64,000 bases of DNA from Shigella phage SSG23: sequence record PQ351811; one strand, 5' to 3'. Positions within the stretch are counted from its first letter, which is position 1. Every line of letters begins with the position of its first letter. The notes under the pieces were generated by a model. The model was not told the DNA's origin and made no database searches. It saw only the letters and a list, made by a program, of their open reading frames with translations. Positions 30,428-52,424 of this stretch are shown piece by piece. Position numbers and translations under genes: made by a program.

Positions 30428-30892
30428 ATGACCCCGTTTCGAGAATCCGTTAAAGGTACATATGCGGCGGTTAAATTCACTGAGGATACACTAGACCGCA
30501 TTGAAAAATTGCAGGAGTTCTACAATCTGCCTAATGCCGTTCCTCGTGATAAACTTCATAGTACGATCTTATATTCTCGTGTTTATGTTCCGTTTATCCC
30601 AGAAGATGGTGAAAAGTTTTTAGGCTCTCTATGCCATCTGAAAGTGTTTGAAACTCAATCCGGTACTAATGCACTTGTGCTGGCATTTGAAAGCGACTAC
30701 ATGCAATTCAGACACGATATCGGCACTGCTTTAGGTGCGACGTGGGATTATCCTGAATATGTACCGCATATCACGCTTTCTTATGATGTTGGTGCGCGTA
30801 AATTTGGCACTGACCTAGAGTTCGATTTAGAGATTGTCCGATCTCATGAATATGTCGAAGATCTAGACCTGGAGTGGACGACCAAACTGTAA
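30428..30892 (+). CDS. acb1: 2H phosphoesterase, 57B/Acb1-like (anti-CBASS cyclic-nucleotide phosphodiesterase)
   Basis: 154 aa; two H-x-T/S-x motifs (HSTIL, HITLS) typical of 2H/LigT fold; same position as T4 57B. Confidence 0.6.
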   Translation: MTPFRESVKGTYAAVKFTEDTLDRIEKLQEFYNLPNAVPRDKLHSTILYSRVYVPFIPEDGEKFLGSLCHLKVFETQSGTNALVLAFESDYMQFRHDIGTALGATWDYPEYVPHITLSYDVGARKFGTDLEFDLEIVRSHEYVEDLDLEWTTKL

Positions 30893-31616: not shown

Positions 31617-31811
31617 ATGGAATTGGATATGGTTAACGCAAAATTTATGGGTAAAGATAAGAAAGGTACAACATTTGTTATTAACAAAACATTGCTTCGC
31701 TCTGACCTTAAGTGGGTAACACAACAATTTGCGGAAGTCAATGAGGCTGTAGTGACCTGCTTTGTCGGTGATAAGAAAGTTTTTGAAATTGACCGTCGTG
31801 GGGGTGTCTAA
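31617..31811 (+). CDS. hypothetical protein
   Basis: 64 aa ORF with RBS, tightly packed. Confidence 0.45.
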   Translation: MELDMVNAKFMGKDKKGTTFVINKTLLRSDLKWVTQQFAEVNEAVVTCFVGDKKVFEIDRRGGV

Positions 31812-37893: not shown

Positions 37894-38592
37894 ATGCATA
37901 CAATGGTTAAAATGGTCTTTGGATCTCACTTATACGGCCTTGATACTGAAAATTCCGATAAAGATTATCGTGGTATCTTTGTTCCAACTGCGAAAGAAAT
38001 TATCTTAGGATCGATGAAAGAACACTATGACCAAAGCACTAGCGGTCAAGGTATCAAGAACACCAAAGACGATATTGATGTTAATATGTTCAGTCTAAAA
38101 AGGTTTATCAACCTGGCATGTAAAGGTGATATTGGCGCTATTGACATTGTGCACGCGCCTAGTAACATGTTGATTGAATCCTCCAGAGAATGGGAATACA
38201 TCCGAACACATCGCGATAAATTCTATCATGTTGGTATGTGGGGTTGTTCTGGCTATCTCAAAAAGCAGGTAGCCAAATCTGAAAAGTATTTCAGTAACTG
38301 GAAAGATCTTTCTCATGCTCTGCGTGTTGGTTATCAGCTACTTGAAATCTATCAGACAGGTGATCTACAATTCCCACTCGCTCGACGTTCTTCTATTTTA
38401 GCGTGTAAGTTAGGAGAAAGAACCTTTGATAATGTGCGGGAAGAATTGAAAGATCTCTACGAACGTGTTAAACTCGCGCGTGAAGAGGCAAAGAAAAACG
38501 GGATGCCAGAAGAACCAGATGTTGACTTTTGGAAAGATTTATTAGAATATATTCATCTGACCGTTGTTCTTGAACACTATACCCGTGGTTAG
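37894..38592 (+). CDS. pol-beta superfamily nucleotidyltransferase-like protein
   Basis: 232 aa; N-terminal GSHLYGLDTENSDKD fits the GS-x(9-13)-D-x-D nucleotidyltransferase signature. Confidence 0.55.
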   Translation: MHTMVKMVFGSHLYGLDTENSDKDYRGIFVPTAKEIILGSMKEHYDQSTSGQGIKNTKDDIDVNMFSLKRFINLACKGDIGAIDIVHAPSNMLIESSREWEYIRTHRDKFYHVGMWGCSGYLKKQVAKSEKYFSNWKDLSHALRVGYQLLEIYQTGDLQFPLARRSSILACKLGERTFDNVREELKDLYERVKLAREEAKKNGMPEEPDVDFWKDLLEYIHLTVVLEHYTRG

Positions 38593-38613: not shown

Positions 38614-38808
38614 ATGCAAGTTTATACCAATAGCAATAAAGGACAAGATATTACGCCCGGAAAGATGTATGATTTTACCCCGGCACGAGACGACGAAAAT
38701 CCACCGACAATCGGTTACATCAAAGATGATATAGGTTATCGTATTACGATACTTCTTGATGGTGGATGTTCTCATCTTCGCGGTGATAAATGGGAGTTAG
38801 TACCATGA
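38614..38808 (+). CDS. hypothetical protein, YGYIKDD paralog 1
   Basis: 64 aa; shares TPxKxYxFTP...GYIKDD...CSHL motif with next two ORFs. Confidence 0.5.
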   Translation: MQVYTNSNKGQDITPGKMYDFTPARDDENPPTIGYIKDDIGYRITILLDGGCSHLRGDKWELVP

Positions 38809-39050
38809 TGTATGTTATGACACCTTATAGTAGTAGATCTTACATCACCCCAAATAAACTGTATAAGTTTACGCCAGATGAAAGAATGTCTACCTACGGT
38901 TACATCAAAGATGATAAAGGATACGAACTTTTTATTTCTCTGAAAAGTTGTGCATACCTTGATGACCGTCCGTGGACACTGATCGAAAAACCAAAACAAC
39001 CTGAGAATAAAGGTCTTTGGAATGTGCTAAAAAAATTCTTGAAAAAGTAG
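38805..39050 (+). CDS. hypothetical protein, YGYIKDD paralog 2
   Basis: ORF 38790-39050 trimmed to ATG overlapping previous stop (ATGA). Confidence 0.5.
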   Translation: MMYVMTPYSSRSYITPNKLYKFTPDERMSTYGYIKDDKGYELFISLKSCAYLDDRPWTLIEKPKQPENKGLWNVLKKFLKK

Positions 39051-39110: not shown

Positions 39111-39449
39111 ATGAGTGTTAAAGAAGTGTTTGTTTATACCGACTATGACGGGTGCGCCTATATCACCGCCGGAAAACTTTACCGATGTGAAATTATTCAT
39201 GGTACATTAGGTCGAATTATGTGCGATCCGGTTACAAAATTGTGGAAAAGCAATCCTAGTGAGCGAGAAACTCTTATTAACCTAGATCCAGACGGTTGTT
39301 CACATTTGGACTATAGAAAATGGCATATCGTGACACATGATGCTTATGGTATTCATCTTGCTACTAAAGAATTAACTATAGAGAAATTCAAGTTTAAAGA
39401 AATCCCGTTTGTATACTGGCTTCGCAATTTGTTCAAGAAAGGAGAATAA
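39111..39449 (+). CDS. hypothetical protein, YGYIKDD paralog 3
   Basis: 112 aa; AGKLYRCE...DPDGCSHLDYRKWHIV resembles the preceding two ORFs. Confidence 0.5.
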   Translation: MSVKEVFVYTDYDGCAYITAGKLYRCEIIHGTLGRIMCDPVTKLWKSNPSERETLINLDPDGCSHLDYRKWHIVTHDAYGIHLATKELTIEKFKFKEIPFVYWLRNLFKKGE

Positions 39450-39895: not shown

Positions 39896-39923
39896 TTGAC
39901 TTTCTGGTGATAGGGCTATATTA
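39896..39923 (+). promoter_or_regulatory. possible promoter (TGCTTGACT ... TATATT)
   Basis: TTGACT with a 15-16 bp spacer to TATATT upstream of the secreted SLT-like gene; spacing suboptimal. Confidence 0.35.
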
Positions 39924-39958
39924 TGGAATCAGAAAGTTAAGCCAAACAGGAGAAATTG

Positions 39959-40549
39959 ATGTTAAAAGTTCTAAAAGCGATAGTATTGAGTCTGTCACTA
40001 GCCGTTGGTGCTACACACGCATCGACTAGCGCACCGATCAAAAAAGCGCCGATAGACAACTTTACAGCACACCAACTAGATAATTTACATTTCGCCTATC
40101 AATACGGTGAGCAATTCGAGAAAAGCGGTAAGTTGAAAAATGACCATCCGAATATTCGCTATAACGGAAAGGGTTTAGGTCACATCCTGGCGGGTATCGC
40201 ATGGCAAGAATCAAGCGCGGGTGCAAACTTAGCACCAAAGAAAAATCATCATGCTTATGGATTATTTCAAAATTACCTTAAAACGGTGAAAGCGAAAAAT
40301 GCAAAGCGCGGTGTTAAAATGAGTGATCGCCAGACTATCAACTTTATCATGAATCGCGAGGTTTCTGCATTCTACGCGATGGATGAGTTAGCATACTGGC
40401 TGGATGTTCGAAACGGTAATATTCGACTCGCGCTAGCTTCTTACAATGCAGGATGGAACTATAAAGCCGGGTTAGGTTATGCTGATGACGTACTAAAAAA
40501 GGCTAACCATCTAAAGAGTAAAGGCATTCTTAAAACTAAACGCTATTGA
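39959..40549 (+). CDS. secreted lytic transglycosylase-like protein (SLT domain)
   Basis: N-terminal signal peptide (LSLAVGATHA); AWQESS...GLFQ resembles the SLT catalytic ES...GLMQ motif. Confidence 0.55.
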   Translation: MLKVLKAIVLSLSLAVGATHASTSAPIKKAPIDNFTAHQLDNLHFAYQYGEQFEKSGKLKNDHPNIRYNGKGLGHILAGIAWQESSAGANLAPKKNHHAYGLFQNYLKTVKAKNAKRGVKMSDRQTINFIMNREVSAFYAMDELAYWLDVRNGNIRLALASYNAGWNYKAGLGYADDVLKKANHLKSKGILKTKRY

Positions 40550-40556
40550 GGAATCT

Positions 40557-40916
40557 ATGAAAAAGTTGACAGTAATTGCTATGATTGCTATGATGCTCTC
40601 GGCTGGTGCGCTTGCTAGTAATGAGCGCCCTTATCCAAAGTTCGAATACAAAGGGTTTGAGATCAACAAAAAGATCATTAAAACCTTCTGTGATAATGAT
40701 AACATGTGTAGCGATTTTATCGCACTTGAACTTGACGAAGCGTACAAACAAGGTCGAGACGAAAAACGAAAAAATCGAGCGTGGGATCTAAGTATTGCCA
40801 GCTTTGCTAAAACAAAACGTAACTTGTGTGATACTGCCCCGGATAAGCAATTGTGTTTTGCATATCGTGACACACTGTTAAGCCGTTTTATGGCTGGGTT
40901 GTCTTCCCGTGACTAA
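40557..40916 (+). CDS. secreted hypothetical protein
   Basis: 119 aa with N-terminal signal peptide (MKKLTVIAMIAMMLSAGALA), Cys-containing. Confidence 0.5.
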   Translation: MKKLTVIAMIAMMLSAGALASNERPYPKFEYKGFEINKKIIKTFCDNDNMCSDFIALELDEAYKQGRDEKRKNRAWDLSIASFAKTKRNLCDTAPDKQLCFAYRDTLLSRFMAGLSSRD

Positions 40917-40931
40917 TTAGAGGTTTATATT

Positions 40932-41387
40932 ATGATTATTGATACTGTAAAGGGCGATCTCATCGCCCTGTTTAAACAAGGAAACGGTCATTTAATTCAT
41001 GGTTGTAATTGTTTTCATACTATGGGCGCTGGTATTGCTGCGGATATCGCAAAAGAGTTCCCGCAAGCGTTAGAGATTGACAAGCAAACTTCTCGCGGTA
41101 AGGTAGAAAAGCTGGGTGGGTTTAGTGTCTGGACGCATCAAGTTAATGGTTATAACTGGTGTGGGGTGAATCTCTATACCCAATTCCGACCGGGTCCAAA
41201 TGCTGAATATAGTGCTATCCTGAAAGGATTTGAGTCTCTCAATGATGTTTTTGAAGGTGCTATACAGCCTTTCTATATTCCTAAAATCGGTTGCGGTATC
41301 GGTGGCCTTGAGTGGGAATGCGTAGAAGAAATCATTAATATTGCTACTCCAGATATCAATATTGTGGTGGTTGAATATGGCAAATAA
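40932..41387 (+). CDS. macro domain protein (ADP-ribose binding/processing)
   Basis: 151 aa; HGCNCFHTMGAGIA and KIGCGIGGL glycine-rich motifs characteristic of macro domains. Confidence 0.65.
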   Translation: MIIDTVKGDLIALFKQGNGHLIHGCNCFHTMGAGIAADIAKEFPQALEIDKQTSRGKVEKLGGFSVWTHQVNGYNWCGVNLYTQFRPGPNAEYSAILKGFESLNDVFEGAIQPFYIPKIGCGIGGLEWECVEEIINIATPDINIVVVEYGK

Positions 41388-41571
41388 AAATGATCTATAT
41401 TCCGGCGATTGGGTTAAACGTCAGACTGTAGAAAACGTAACTTGTTTTCGTTGTTTCACTGAATACAATATAAAAACCGCTCCTGTTAGTGTTCCAAAGA
41501 CAGACGGGTATTATATTAAAGAACCGCATTGCCCTAAATGTAAATGTCGATTATATTGGAGTCATCTATGA
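41377..41571 (+). CDS. small zinc-ribbon protein
   Basis: ORF trimmed to ATG; CFRCF...CPKCKC (two CxxC pairs). Confidence 0.45.
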   Translation: MANKNDLYSGDWVKRQTVENVTCFRCFTEYNIKTAPVSVPKTDGYYIKEPHCPKCKCRLYWSHL

Positions 41572-41786
41572 AGAAGCCTAATACCGCTCACATGAAGGAA
41601 AACTGCCGATGTGGTAGATGTGGTTGGCCTATTATCTTCACTTGCTGTAACGACGATATGCAGCGTTTACCGTGGGGAATGTGGGATTGGTGGATGTATT
41701 GCAGCAATAAAGGATGTATTCACCATGAAGGCGAAGGAGTGTTTCAAGAAACGCCTGATTGGGTGGAGGTGATAGAAAATGCTTGA
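41568..41786 (+). CDS. small Cys-rich (zinc-binding) protein
   Basis: ORF trimmed to ATG after GGAG; CRCGRCGW...CCNDD...CSNKGC. Confidence 0.45.
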   Translation: MKKPNTAHMKENCRCGRCGWPIIFTCCNDDMQRLPWGMWDWWMYCSNKGCIHHEGEGVFQETPDWVEVIENA

Positions 41787-42072
41787 GACTATCATTAACC
41801 TTGTTATGTGGACTTTTAATTTCGTTATTGTTATTATTGCGGGTATTGAGATCGTCAAGCAATATCTGTTACAATCCAGAAATAAACATGTTGTAATTGA
41901 TATGGATTCTCAAGGAAATAAGCTGATCCTGCTAGAAGACGGTCGGGAATATTGGGTAGGTTATCCAAAGACACTACGCGGATTTATCTTTGCTATGGGT
42001 GTTTGCTTCTTTTTCCTTTGTATCTGGGTTTATGTTGGTTTAGGTCTTGCTGGATTTTTGGAGATTAATTAA
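41779..42072 (+). CDS. small membrane protein
   Basis: 97 aa, two hydrophobic helices. Confidence 0.45.
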   Translation: MLETIINLVMWTFNFVIVIIAGIEIVKQYLLQSRNKHVVIDMDSQGNKLILLEDGREYWVGYPKTLRGFIFAMGVCFFFLCIWVYVGLGLAGFLEIN

Positions 42073-42668
42073 TGGCTCAACTATATTTCTACTATGCATC
42101 TATGAACGCTGGCAAATCAACTTCCCTGCTACAAAGTGCTTATAACTATACCGAACGTGATATGCGAGTATTAATTCTTAAACCAGCGATTGATAATCGT
42201 GATTCAGATAGTGAAGTTGTTTCCCGAATTGGTCTAAGTGCTCCAGCGATCACCTTCACTAAATCGGATGATCTTTTCGATTTGGTTTATCGTGAATCAC
42301 TGGGTAAGCGTAGACCAGATCGCTGGCGTCCTGATGCTGTATTTGTAGATGAAGCCCAATTTATGACTAAAGAACATGTTTTAGGCTTATGTGCACTGGT
42401 TGATGATGCCAATATCCCTGTTTTGTGCTATGGCCTTCGCACTGACTTTAAAGGCAATCTATTTGAGGGATCTGCGGCATTAATGGCATTGGCTGATAAA
42501 CTGGTTGAAATGAAGGGTATTTGTCATTGCGGTAAGAAAGCAACTATGGTCCTTCGCGTAGATAAAGATGGTAATGTTATTCGCGATGGTGCTCAAATAG
42601 AAGTTGGTGCAGAGGATAAATATGTTTCTGTGTGCCGTAAACATTTTATTGACGGAACTACCAACTAA
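42072..42668 (+). CDS. tk: thymidine kinase
   Basis: 198 aa; MAQLYFYYASMNAGKSTSLLQSAYNY... matches the bacterial/T4 thymidine kinase N-terminus and P-loop; C-terminal CHCGKKA zinc motif. Confidence 0.9.
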   Translation: MAQLYFYYASMNAGKSTSLLQSAYNYTERDMRVLILKPAIDNRDSDSEVVSRIGLSAPAITFTKSDDLFDLVYRESLGKRRPDRWRPDAVFVDEAQFMTKEHVLGLCALVDDANIPVLCYGLRTDFKGNLFEGSAALMALADKLVEMKGICHCGKKATMVLRVDKDGNVIRDGAQIEVGAEDKYVSVCRKHFIDGTTN

Positions 42669-42736
42669 GAGTTAATCATAAATAAAGCCCCAGATTATAA
42701 ATATAACTGAATATTTTCAATCTGGGGGAATGACTT

Positions 42737-43039
42737 ATGTCATTTATTCGTAAAACTCTAACAGCGGCAATATGCTTGACTGCGGTCGGAAGTGTCAGTG
42801 CTGATCAATATGATCCAACTGGTGACTTTACTGATTATTTCGACGGTGCAATGATAGTATATGTAAACAAAATATCTCCTTCCATTGAAACCAGCCAGAA
42901 ATTTCATGCCCATATTATGAAGATGTATGCTCGTAGTAAATGTATGGATTCTAAGCAGTGTTTTATTATGGGGGAATATGCCGCAAAACAATTTGTTATG
43001 TTGTATAATGTGGAGAATCGAGAACATGAAATTCAGTGA
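42737..43039 (+). CDS. secreted hypothetical protein
   Basis: 100 aa, N-terminal signal peptide (LTAAICLTAVGSVSA), two Cys. Confidence 0.5.
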   Translation: MSFIRKTLTAAICLTAVGSVSADQYDPTGDFTDYFDGAMIVYVNKISPSIETSQKFHAHIMKMYARSKCMDSKQCFIMGEYAAKQFVMLYNVENREHEIQ

Positions 43040-43445: not shown

Positions 43446-45593
43446 ATGCCAGCAGAAATTAAAAACACTACAATTAACTCTCAAATTTGGCTTCCTCATA
43501 CTTTTGAATGTTCGATTGTTGCCGAGTCGGATGACCCGGAGAAAAGACGAAAAGGATATTTATGGAAAAAGAACGATAAGTTGATCACAATGACCGATGG
43601 TCCGTCTTTTCCGCTAAAGTCTGTTAAAGAGGAAGATAAAACAGGTTGGTCTGTTAATGTTCGTGGTTTTGCTCAAGATGATGAAAATCTTTCTGGCGAA
43701 TCCGTAGATATCGGTACGGAAAACTTCACCTTTGAACTTTTTGATAATCCATATGTGGAACATGTATACCCGCCTACGTCTTTTAATATTGGTGATGAAA
43801 TCAAGGCAAAGATTGTTTTTCGTAGTCATATCCAGCCTAATATTTCGGTTGACCTTTATTATAATGATGGTTTGGTTGATTCCGTTGACGGTGATCTGGG
43901 GTTAGACCATCGTGAATTTAAAATTGCAAAATTCGCGTGGCCTGAATTTTCCGGTACATATAAAATGGAATTGAGTGATGAACATGGTGAGGTTAAGTTT
44001 GTATATCCTTTCTATGCAAATATCACTGAAAATAAGGAAGTATTCAACGTACAAAAATATGCACCTGCCTATTTTACAGTAGAGGATGATGCACCGAATC
44101 AGGCGGAATATACTATTGTCCGATATCGACTAGAGCGCAATGATGGTAGTTTGGTTTATGAGTCTAAAGATAAGACTCTATACGTGACTAAACACGCTCA
44201 ACCGTCCGATGCTGGGGTTTATATTGCTTTTGTTCGTGCATATAAGGTTGTTAATGGACCTGGTGCTGGGACCGAATATGTGGATGGTGAAAAACATCGA
44301 TTCACAGTTAACGTAAAAGAAAACGAATTTTTTAGCCGTGATTTTAGTGCTATTGATTTTCGTTATCCTTCTGGGTCTACTGTAAACCTTGATATGCCAG
44401 TGATGCAAGCCGATAGCTCATGGAATCGTCATTATGGTATGCTTACTAACAACGTTTACTTTACGTGGATGCTTGGCGGTAAGAAACTACAAAGTAAAAA
44501 ATATGGTGATGAAGGATATGACCGAATCACATTATCTGGATTGCAATATGATAACAGCGTTGCGCTTCAATTGTTGGTTGCTCCTGCCAATCCAGCGGGT
44601 GAACAGGTGATTCCTAACGGTCGCCCATTATTTTATGATCGTCGTATGCTTGAGATTTATGATAAAGAGTATGATTATCGTAATATTGAAGTGGGTGAAC
44701 CGATTGTTCTCAAGATCGTAGATCCTGAACCGCCAGCTAGTGATGATCCTGAACAAACGCGAACTTTGGTTATCACCAAAAACGACGTTAAAGTAACGGA
44801 ACTTCCACTAGGTACTAAGGAATATAAGATCACCGACTCTGCGGACCGAGACCATAACGGCATCTGGGCGCATGAATATCGTGATAGTCCGAGTAAAGAT
44901 CCATTTAGTGCACATACTGATTTTGATATTGCTGGTCGTTCGACCTATCATGTTGAAGTAGTGCCGAATATGGAGTTTGACGGTCCTCATCCTGTGCAGG
45001 TGACGGAGGGTGATACCCTGACGCTAGAAGCAACCATGCTAAAACCGCCAGCCTCATATGTTCCGACTTATGAGTTTAGTAAAAACGGTGTTAAAATGGA
45101 AATGGAAGACCCAAGAAGTCCGATTTACCGTAAAGCAAACGTTACGCTAGAGGATGCTGGTGTTTATCGATTTGTTGCATTTGCTGATAAAAACAGCAAC
45201 GATGAACTAGATCCTGGCGAGATTGTCGGGTATACAAAATATGTTCAGGTTGTAGTTAATAAACGTCCTGTGCGACCGGATGAACCTAGACCGGAAGTTA
45301 AAATTGTTACTATGTTTAACGAGTTTAGCAAAGGTCGATTTAGTCCGTGTCCGTATTGGGTAATTGATGAGCTTGTCGAATTGATGGAAGACCCGCATGG
45401 CTGGATGGATAAACTTGAAGATTCTGTCTACTATGACTGGCAAATCACTATCTTTAATGAGTTCCTAAAAGGCAAGGATTTGTATCTTCAAGATTCGTGT
45501 AATGGTTACTGGGCGATTGTCCGCCAGAAGGATATGTCTATTGAAACTGGCTATGGTCGATTCAAACACTACTATACAAATGGACGTGAATAA
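43446..45593 (+). CDS. large acidic protein with Ig-like repeat signatures
   Basis: 715 aa; repeated D-x-G-x-Y beta-sandwich-like motifs (PSDAGVYIAFVRAY, LEDAGVYRFVAFAD). Confidence 0.55.
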   Translation: MPAEIKNTTINSQIWLPHTFECSIVAESDDPEKRRKGYLWKKNDKLITMTDGPSFPLKSVKEEDKTGWSVNVRGFAQDDENLSGESVDIGTENFTFELFDNPYVEHVYPPTSFNIGDEIKAKIVFRSHIQPNISVDLYYNDGLVDSVDGDLGLDHREFKIAKFAWPEFSGTYKMELSDEHGEVKFVYPFYANITENKEVFNVQKYAPAYFTVEDDAPNQAEYTIVRYRLERNDGSLVYESKDKTLYVTKHAQPSDAGVYIAFVRAYKVVNGPGAGTEYVDGEKHRFTVNVKENEFFSRDFSAIDFRYPSGSTVNLDMPVMQADSSWNRHYGMLTNNVYFTWMLGGKKLQSKKYGDEGYDRITLSGLQYDNSVALQLLVAPANPAGEQVIPNGRPLFYDRRMLEIYDKEYDYRNIEVGEPIVLKIVDPEPPASDDPEQTRTLVITKNDVKVTELPLGTKEYKITDSADRDHNGIWAHEYRDSPSKDPFSAHTDFDIAGRSTYHVEVVPNMEFDGPHPVQVTEGDTLTLEATMLKPPASYVPTYEFSKNGVKMEMEDPRSPIYRKANVTLEDAGVYRFVAFADKNSNDELDPGEIVGYTKYVQVVVNKRPVRPDEPRPEVKIVTMFNEFSKGRFSPCPYWVIDELVELMEDPHGWMDKLEDSVYYDWQITIFNEFLKGKDLYLQDSCNGYWAIVRQKDMSIETGYGRFKHYYTNGRE

Positions 45594-51995: not shown

Positions 51996-52424
51996 ATGGT
52001 TTATCCAACTCCTAGTAAGATTTACATTGATGATACCCATTTTATGGTTGATATGATGGGTATAAAGTTTAGTGGTAATGTTAAAATTGTAGAGTGGGAA
52101 TTGCACGGTCAACCTGTCATCGATTATGACCATTACATTCCTTTTTTGGGTGATGACAATTTTGTCTCGTTTGACCATGAAGGTTACATGATCTTTGAAC
52201 AGTCTGACGTACCTTTGTATCTGGCAATGATGCAAATTCCTACGAAGGTTTCTGTTGTTGAGGGTGATTGCGATTGCTGCGGTTGGTATACTGTAACAGA
52301 TATTAAGTTGCCATCCGGTAAAGAACTCTACAACGAAGACCATTTTGGAAACTGTAACTTTCCGTGTGATTGGGATGAATTTTTCGAACTGGTAGAAACT
52401 GAAAGAACTTATTTAAGGAAGTGA
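51996..52424 (+). CDS. hypothetical protein
   Basis: 142 aa ORF after ATGAGGATTATATAATG motif. Confidence 0.5.
   Translation: MVYPTPSKIYIDDTHFMVDMMGIKFSGNVKIVEWELHGQPVIDYDHYIPFLGDDNFVSFDHEGYMIFEQSDVPLYLAMMQIPTKVSVVEGDCDCCGWYTVTDIKLPSGKELYNEDHFGNCNFPCDWDEFFELVETERTYLRK

Follow-up and report, generated by a model that had tools for sequence, protein, structure and literature searches.

Analysis of a 64,000-nucleotide stretch of the Shigella phage SSG23 genome (sequence record PQ351811; the whole stretch is referred to as the window) showed that the gene at 40932-41387 is, judged by homology and gene position, the Krischvirus orthologue of T4 Tk.4, also named AdfM ("anti-DarT factor macrodomain"). 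This analysis established the fold and class of its 151-amino-acid (aa) product, along with its orthology, its synteny and the residues of its active site. The product probably hydrolyses the thymidine-ADP-ribose that DarT2 makes on phage single-stranded DNA (ssDNA), and it would do so by a glutamine-type (Gln-type) mechanism. The name Tk.4 was already attached to the gene in the RB49 genome, several records label it a macro domain, and the function of the T4 orthologue has been published; the remaining novelty lies in the Gln-type classification and in the unexplained neighbourhoods of Zn1, a small zinc-ribbon-like gene immediately downstream.

A preliminary description, made from the sequence alone, had reported a 151-aa macro-domain open reading frame (ORF) with two glycine-rich loops. 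The ORF and both quoted motifs were present, HGCNCFHTMGAGIA at residues 23-36 and KIGCGIGGL at residues 118-126, far beyond what chance would give, and the ADP-ribose (ADPr)-binding loops were located at MGAGIA (31-36) and GCGIGG (120-125). Pfam Macro (PF01661) aligned over its whole length (profile positions 1-118 of 118) with residues 22-135, scoring 29.5 bits where the cut-off is 22 (E 7.6e-7); phrog_335 matched with E 2e-62. The NCBIfam DarG model NF048014 matched through its macro half only (positions 2-139 of 338), scoring 51 bits where an equivalog needs 250. The PDB sequence search returned the Mycobacterium tuberculosis DarG macrodomain first (7e-8), followed by BT1257, TARG1, SCO6735 and Poa1p. 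Structure prediction, which the preliminary description had proposed as a check, also gave a macrodomain: the AlphaFold2 model on 56 homologues (predicted local distance difference test score, pLDDT, 96.1; predicted template modelling score, pTM, 0.90) had the predicted three-layer alpha/beta/alpha macro fold with two Gly-rich ADP-ribose-binding loops, and Foldseek matched it to TARG1 (E 1.6e-10, template modelling score 0.75-0.83), Poa1p and DarG. The nearest neighbours were TARG1, DarG, Poa1p and SCO6735, not MacroD, PARG or viral X-domains. On account of these profile, PDB-search and fold matches, the protein is placed, as predicted from sequence and model, among the macrodomains of the ALC1/TARG1/DarG class, as a free-standing member.

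The alignment with T4 Tk.4 (155 aa) ran the full length of the proteins: 45% of residues were identical over 152 aa (E 2e-44), and the invariant motifs HGCNCFHTMG.G, NLYTQF and P(K/R)IG.GIG occurred in both. The flanking genes had diverged from their T4 counterparts to a similar degree (tk 54%, vs.1 52% and regB 41% identity). The macro gene was placed between vs and tk in identical order in T4, T6, RB49 and the window, and both features that define the phrog_335/Tk.4 group, full-length homology and the vs-tk position, were found. The locus differs from that of T4 in its genus, the window being a Krischvirus, and in the interval that follows the macro gene, where Tk.3, Tk.2 and Tk.1 of T4 are replaced by Zn1, a second Cys-rich ORF (Zn2) and a membrane ORF. 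The comparison shows that RB49-type phages, too, have the anti-DarTG2 macrodomain of T4, with an intact active site. Relatives of the macro protein were found in 2,732 of 50,697 phage records, or about 5% of sequenced phage genomes, and many of them are labelled "macro domain protein", "Poa1p-like" or "phosphatase".

A T4 transposon library grown on a DarTG2 host gave tk.4 as its one significant hit, a clean T4 tk.4 knockout was DarTG2-sensitive, and the gene was renamed adfM (bioRxiv 10.1101/2025.11.20.689424, November 2025). An earlier study had found that T4 without adfA and adfN remains DarTG2-resistant, and a further factor was predicted there. Reversal of DarT-type DNA ADP-ribosylation, one of the roles that the preliminary description had put forward, is the one with experimental backing because of the T4 tk.4 genetics, and by analogy with the T4 orthologue the Krischvirus copy would be expected to confer the same anti-DarTG2 phenotype.

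The active site was aligned across the window protein, T4 Tk.4, FV3 gp191, a Klebsiella phage homologue, PhiKZ gp104 and the PDB fragments printed by HMMER. The catalytic Lys of human TARG1/OARD1 (K84; 4J5R), DarG (K80, Thermus aquaticus numbering) and PhiKZ AdfM (K78) aligned with Gln84 in both the window protein and T4 Tk.4, while Asp125, the second member of the TARG1 Lys84/Asp125 dyad, aligned with Gly124. The equivalent of DarG N22 was kept as N26, and the adenine-contacting Asp (D9) and the ADPr-binding loops were intact. Across the 56 homologues (38-83% identity), Q84, N26 and G24 were invariant and H23 was found in at least 90%. Residues Q84, N26 and H23 of the window protein aligned with Q85, N27 and H24 of SCO6735, giving the SCO6735-like combination of Gln at the catalytic-Lys position with the Asn of the H-x-C-N motif, and the same Gln was found in SCO6735 and BT1257, the top PDB matches of the family profile (1.4e-14 and 1.6e-15). 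Both SCO6735 (Streptomyces coelicolor, PDB 5E3B) and Bacteroides BT1257 (2FG1/2AFC) are Gln-type ALC1-like proteins with the H-x-C-N motif as here, although they are cellular and not phage proteins.

SCO6735 removes ADP-ribose linked to thymidine in ssDNA and can rescue cells from DarT, its Q85A, Q85E and N27S mutants lose the hydrolysis of ADP-ribosylated thymidine in DNA (dT-ADPr-DNA), and the mechanism proposed for it is water-mediated and needs no lysine (PMC9411070). The preliminary description had held that absent catalytic residues would speak against the macro-domain claim. Such absence is formally real for the TARG1 dyad and the DarG Lys, but the Gln-type residues Q84 and N26 are present, and the loss is not fatal because this Gln and Asn are the residues that SCO6735 needs. 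It is reasonably likely that T4-type AdfM uses the Lys-independent mechanism of SCO6735.

The DarG macrodomain (M. tuberculosis 5M3I, T. aquaticus 5M31/5M3E) has Lys80 where Gln stands here. The window protein also lacks the C-terminal DarT-binding domain of DarG, and the genes on either side of it are vs and Zn1; neither darT nor any other gene for an ADP-ribosyltransferase (ART) is adjacent. Yeast Poa1p (6LFQ) was listed beside TARG1 as a related known system. PhiKZ gp104, the AdfM of chimalliviruses, bears the same name and is likewise a stand-alone phage macrodomain against DarTG2; it strips thymidine-linked ADP-ribose from DNA in vitro and protects against DarTG2, and its Asn mutant is impaired (Cell Rep 2026, PMC13309987). 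It differs from the window protein in being Lys-type and DarG-like (N23/K78), in carrying an insertion before the second loop, and in being imported into the phage nucleus.

T4-type and PhiKZ AdfM look like independent recruitments of different catalytic subclasses; if the T4 type works as SCO6735 does, its recruitment would be independent of that of the Lys-type chimallivirus AdfM. That one AdfM is Gln-type and the other Lys-type appears unstated in the literature searched, in which "Tk.4" and "macrodomain" occurred together only in the HIDEN-SEQ preprint, which compares Tk.4 with the M. tuberculosis DarG. The subclass matters for predicting which DarT variants are countered and for the design of inhibitors or mutants. 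For host-range prediction in phage therapy, the gene should be annotated as a likely DarTG2 counter-defence and not as a "phosphatase".

In the proposed mechanism, the macro protein would bind, during infection, the ADP-ribose put by host DarT2 on ssDNA thymidines and would hydrolyse the ribose-thymine bond, by which phage replication and packaging would be kept unblocked. Gln84, held by Asn26, would position the distal ribose and water would do the chemistry with no catalytic Lys, as in SCO6735. Zn1, Zn2 and the membrane ORF would be co-transcribed and translationally coupled accessory genes that macro activity does not need. The hydrolytic action is inferred, and several points weigh against it. 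The phenotype comes from T4 and not from a Krischvirus, and the two proteins are only 45% identical. For Tk.4 itself hydrolysis is a proposal, the preprint saying only that it "seems likely" (bioRxiv 10.1101/2025.11.20.689424). The DNA-binding features of SCO6735 are not conserved, since Val25 is replaced by Gly24 and Lys34 by A33, and the Lys-rich mobile loop is 6-7 residues shorter here; Gly24 may substitute for Val25, whose role is via the backbone. Lastly, SCO6735 Q85A, although dead for hydrolysis, still inhibits DarT in vitro, more than DarG K80A or TARG1 K84A (PMC9411070), which would leave room for a non-hydrolytic contribution of the phage protein as well.

An ADP-ribose derivative other than DarT-modified DNA is an unlikely main substrate. 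The candidates would be ADP-ribose-1''-phosphate, as in the old "phosphatase / Poa1p-like" label, the O-acetyl-ADP-ribose of sirtuins, ADP-ribosylated RNA or protein, and an ADPr-derived immune signal. The case for them is made mostly by transferred names and by the wide distribution of the family, but those names were transferred by homology, the sole experimental phenotype of the orthologue is DarTG2-specific, and SCO6735 is inactive on 5'-phosphate- and 2'-OH-linked nucleic-acid ADPr. T4 is also reported to be sensitive to the mRNA ART CmdT despite tk.4 (PMC11618068).

It is rather improbable that the macrodomain neutralises DarT2 mainly without catalysis, by toxin binding or occlusion or by shielding of ADP-ribosylated DNA, in the manner of the DarG C-terminal domain or of ICP1 AdfB. 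The missing canonical Lys, the DarT inhibition retained by SCO6735 Q85A (PMC9411070) and the direct DarT binding through which ICP1 AdfB acts are all compatible with it. However, none of the 56 diverse homologues departs from the Gln and Asn that SCO6735 needs, a sign of selection on an active site, and the Lys-type phage AdfM is catalytic, with an impaired Asn mutant; a binder is also specific to its toxin, while an enzyme remains effective when DarT2 toxins have diverged. Two further suggestions of the preliminary description found no footing in this analysis. No supporting evidence was obtained for degradation of ADP-ribose-derived immune signals, and regulation of the phage's own ARTs is unsupported and chemically unlikely because T4-type ARTs modify arginine, a linkage (arginine-ADPr) that ALC1/TARG1-class macrodomains are not known to cleave. 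The annotation of the window contains no ART gene.

Sequence comparison of the region 39900-42700 showed 100% identity to Shigella phage SFHK24 and 96% identity to RB49 and 56 other Krischvirus genomes. The local gene order was regB, vs.1, vs, macro (tk.4 in the RB49 annotation), two small ORFs, membrane ORF, tk and rI; for comparison, the order in T4 is regB, vs.1, vs, tk.4, tk.3, tk.2, tk.1, tk, rI.1 and rI. The features of the locus were as follows.

39959..40549, + strand: vs.1, homologue of an SLT-domain lytic transglycosylase (PF01464 SLT, E 6e-6); 52% identity to T4 Vs.1; syntenic anchor.
40557..40916, + strand: vs, homologue of the valyl-tRNA synthetase modifier (phrog_1256, E 4e-33); 26% identity to T4 Vs; syntenic anchor.
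40932..41387, + strand: macro gene (tk.4/adfM orthologue by sequence), ATG start, 151 aa, predicted stand-alone macrodomain.
41377..41571, + strand: Zn1, 64 aa, zinc-ribbon-like (CxxC...CxxC), PF23903 / phrog_4864; 11-nt overlap with the macro stop.
41568..41786, + strand: Zn2, 72 aa, Cys/His-rich, PF23895 / phrog_2306; ATGA overlap with the Zn1 stop.
41779..42072, + strand: putative membrane ORF, 97 aa, hydrophobic N- and C-terminal segments (phrog_16027, E 3e-59).
42072..42668, + strand: tk, thymidine kinase (PF00265, E 1.8e-51); 54% identity to T4 Tk; downstream syntenic anchor.

All junctions from the macro gene through Zn1, Zn2 and the membrane ORF to tk overlap (by 11, 4, 8 and 1 nt, respectively), and the macro-to-tk genes therefore form a single tightly packed same-strand block. 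A promoter and terminator scan gave counts no higher than the shuffled expectation, and no transcription unit is therefore claimed. An Rfam search of 38-44 kb returned zero matches at E<=0.1, and the repeats in that interval amounted to two short direct repeats of two copies each; one of them backs the Zn2 start. The membrane ORF was found in Krischvirus only among the loci examined (L001, L002 and L005), and it is labelled "putative membrane protein" in W115. T4 Tk.3, Tk.2 and Tk.1 were considered as counterparts of Zn1, Zn2 and the membrane ORF and were rejected, no similarity being found.

The two genes upstream had been described as encoding secreted proteins. Vs.1 and Vs both open with signal-peptide-like segments, judged by eye only. 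No evidence of a functional tie between the macro protein and these two proteins was found. A Sec-type signal-peptide-like start of Vs was seen by eye in both phages (MKKLTVIAMIAMMLSAGALA followed by S in the window, 40557-40916; MTKILVLCIGLISFSASASA followed by D in T4, L003 4887-5234), which is odd given that Vs is said to bind a cytoplasmic enzyme. In locus L015, the neighbouring gene of the same size as vs carries PF26829.

The two overlapping Cys-rich ORFs that the preliminary description had placed downstream of the macro gene are real and belong to PF23903 (Zn1) and PF23895 (Zn2), with starts that need shifting from those of the mechanical ORF list (41341-41571, with a TTG start, and 41544-41786). 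The most likely start of Zn1 is ATG 41377 (64 aa), not TTG 41341, because of the RB49 and SFHK24 annotation and the full-length 64-aa alignment to Vequintavirus FV3_189. For Zn2, ATG 41568 (72 aa) is most likely the start, not 41544. This ATG overlaps the Zn1 stop as ATGA, is preceded by GGAG at a distance of 7 nt, is the start annotated in RB49 and SFHK24, and falls within an 18-nt initiation-region repeat that is also present at the vs start.

Zn1 matched Phage_zn_bind_2 (PF23903) with 83.3 bits against a cut-off of 27 (E 1.1e-23) and phrog_4864 with E 8e-34, and its CxxC knuckles were read from the sequence as C23-x2-C26 and C52-x2-C55. It was found in 233 phage records and shared 78% identity with FV3_189, located one gene downstream from the macro gene of Vequintavirus. 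In 1.8 billion proteins the family had 16 cluster representatives, 14 of them small and stand-alone (36-92 aa); the other two, long multi-stretch matches, were taken as spurious, and no informative fusion was found among the 16. A separate Zn1 homologue search gave one match, itself a Krischvirus. Zn2 matched Phage_zn_bind (PF23895) with 115.2 bits against a cut-off of 27 (E 1.4e-33) and phrog_2306 with E 5e-34, and was found in 787 phage records. Residues C15, C18, C26, C27, C45, C50 and H53 of Zn2 were invariant in a 6-sequence alignment (A3), and C15, C27, C45 and C50 were still invariant in a 9-sequence alignment (A2). The AlphaFold2 model of Zn2, of mediocre pLDDT (75), gave no PDB fold match. 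Zn1 and Zn2 are real conserved phage families without an assigned function.

The macro gene, Zn1 and Zn2, with or without the membrane ORF, might be read as one anti-ADP-ribosylation cassette in which the Zn proteins bind the toxin, target the macrodomain to DNA or set its specificity. The overlaps joining all four ORFs suggest translational coupling, yet tight gene overlap is usual in T4-type early regions. The macro protein (66-70% identity) and Zn1 (78-83%) are both common to the unrelated Krischvirus and Vequintavirus and are encoded less than 450 bp apart in both, which indicates horizontal movement of both genes; in T6 the distance between Zn2 and tk.4 is about 220 bp, and in the Mimasvirus jumbo phages GAP32 and CBB, Zn1 stands between an Acb1-like 2H phosphoesterase and Sir2, in a cluster of genes related to nicotinamide adenine dinucleotide (NAD) and ADPr. 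Against these associations, the T4 tk.4-tk interval has neither Zn1 nor Zn2, yet tk.4 alone was the DarTG2 hit. Zn1 occurs with no macro gene within 4-10 kb in L008, GAP32 and CBB and lies 5 kb from it in Klebsiella K54_rec1, while Zn2 occurs without a macro gene in Dickeya JA33 and in metagenomic contigs. The record counts are unequal (macro 2,732, Zn1 233 and Zn2 787), the very small Zn1 family showed no informative fusion, the Zn2 model matched no PDB fold, and no similarity of Zn1 or Zn2 to ICP1 AdfB, a small DarT binder, was found. NAD-related Zn1 neighbours were also sought outside Mimasvirus, with no Pfam match in the nearby ORFs of Klebsiella K54_rec1 and FV3 and an unremarkable context in L008. 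A single cassette is thus very doubtful. A mobile anti-ADP-ribosylation cassette, in which Zn1, Zn2 or both would give the toxin binding or DNA targeting that the macrodomain lacks in comparison with DarG, is scarcely more credible; in an extension of it, PF23903 would be a hitherto overlooked companion of phage NAD/ADP-ribose enzymes, its partner being macro in Krischvirus and in Vequintavirus, and in Mimasvirus 2H-phosphoesterase/Sir2/Nudix-cREC. Zn1 and Zn2 are better regarded as accessory genes of a hyperplastic early region, their coupling to the macrodomain being unproven and unlikely.

Beside the Zn1 homologue in Cronobacter phage GAP32 (L009 5515-7909) and Pectobacterium phage CBB (L010), a Nudix-cREC fusion was the next gene, with NAMPT and NMNAT/ADPR-pyrophosphatase near. 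Published accounts of the GAP32/CBB sirtuin neighbourhood left the Zn1 homologue unmentioned, under the terms searched. A third gene common to the unrelated Krischvirus and Vequintavirus was found at 51996-52424 (+) of the window, just upstream of a DNA methyltransferase; this 142-aa Cys-rich ORF was about 48% identical over 73 aa to FV3_192 (L004 3086-3511), which lies directly upstream of the Vequintavirus macro gene.

Other genes were noticed in the window. An Acb1 anti-CBASS phosphodiesterase was found at 30428-30892 (+) (PF23474, E 1.5e-51), where the annotation reads "RNA ligase". A further counter-defence gene of the window, Dmd (PF17587), was found at 31617-31811 (+). An RlaP-type nucleotidyltransferase (NrdC.11) was located at 37894-38592. 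Three consecutive small ORFs at 38614-38808, 38805-39050 and 39111-39449 (+) resemble paralogues, match no Pfam family and have the common pattern ...GKxY.F.P...GYIKDD.GY...C.HL..W. The rI antiholin was found at 42737-43039 (+) (PF24205, E 3e-23) with a signal-peptide-like start; in the GenBank record of SFHK24 this place is given to an ORF on the minus strand (42758-42913), probably through an annotation error. A 715-aa ORF at 43446-45593 (+), located between rI.-1 and the small genes that come next, showed a weak Ig_3 match only. The same site is only about 330 bp in RB49 and in two metagenomic Krischvirus contigs, so the 715-aa ORF looks like a strain-specific 2.1-kb insertion.
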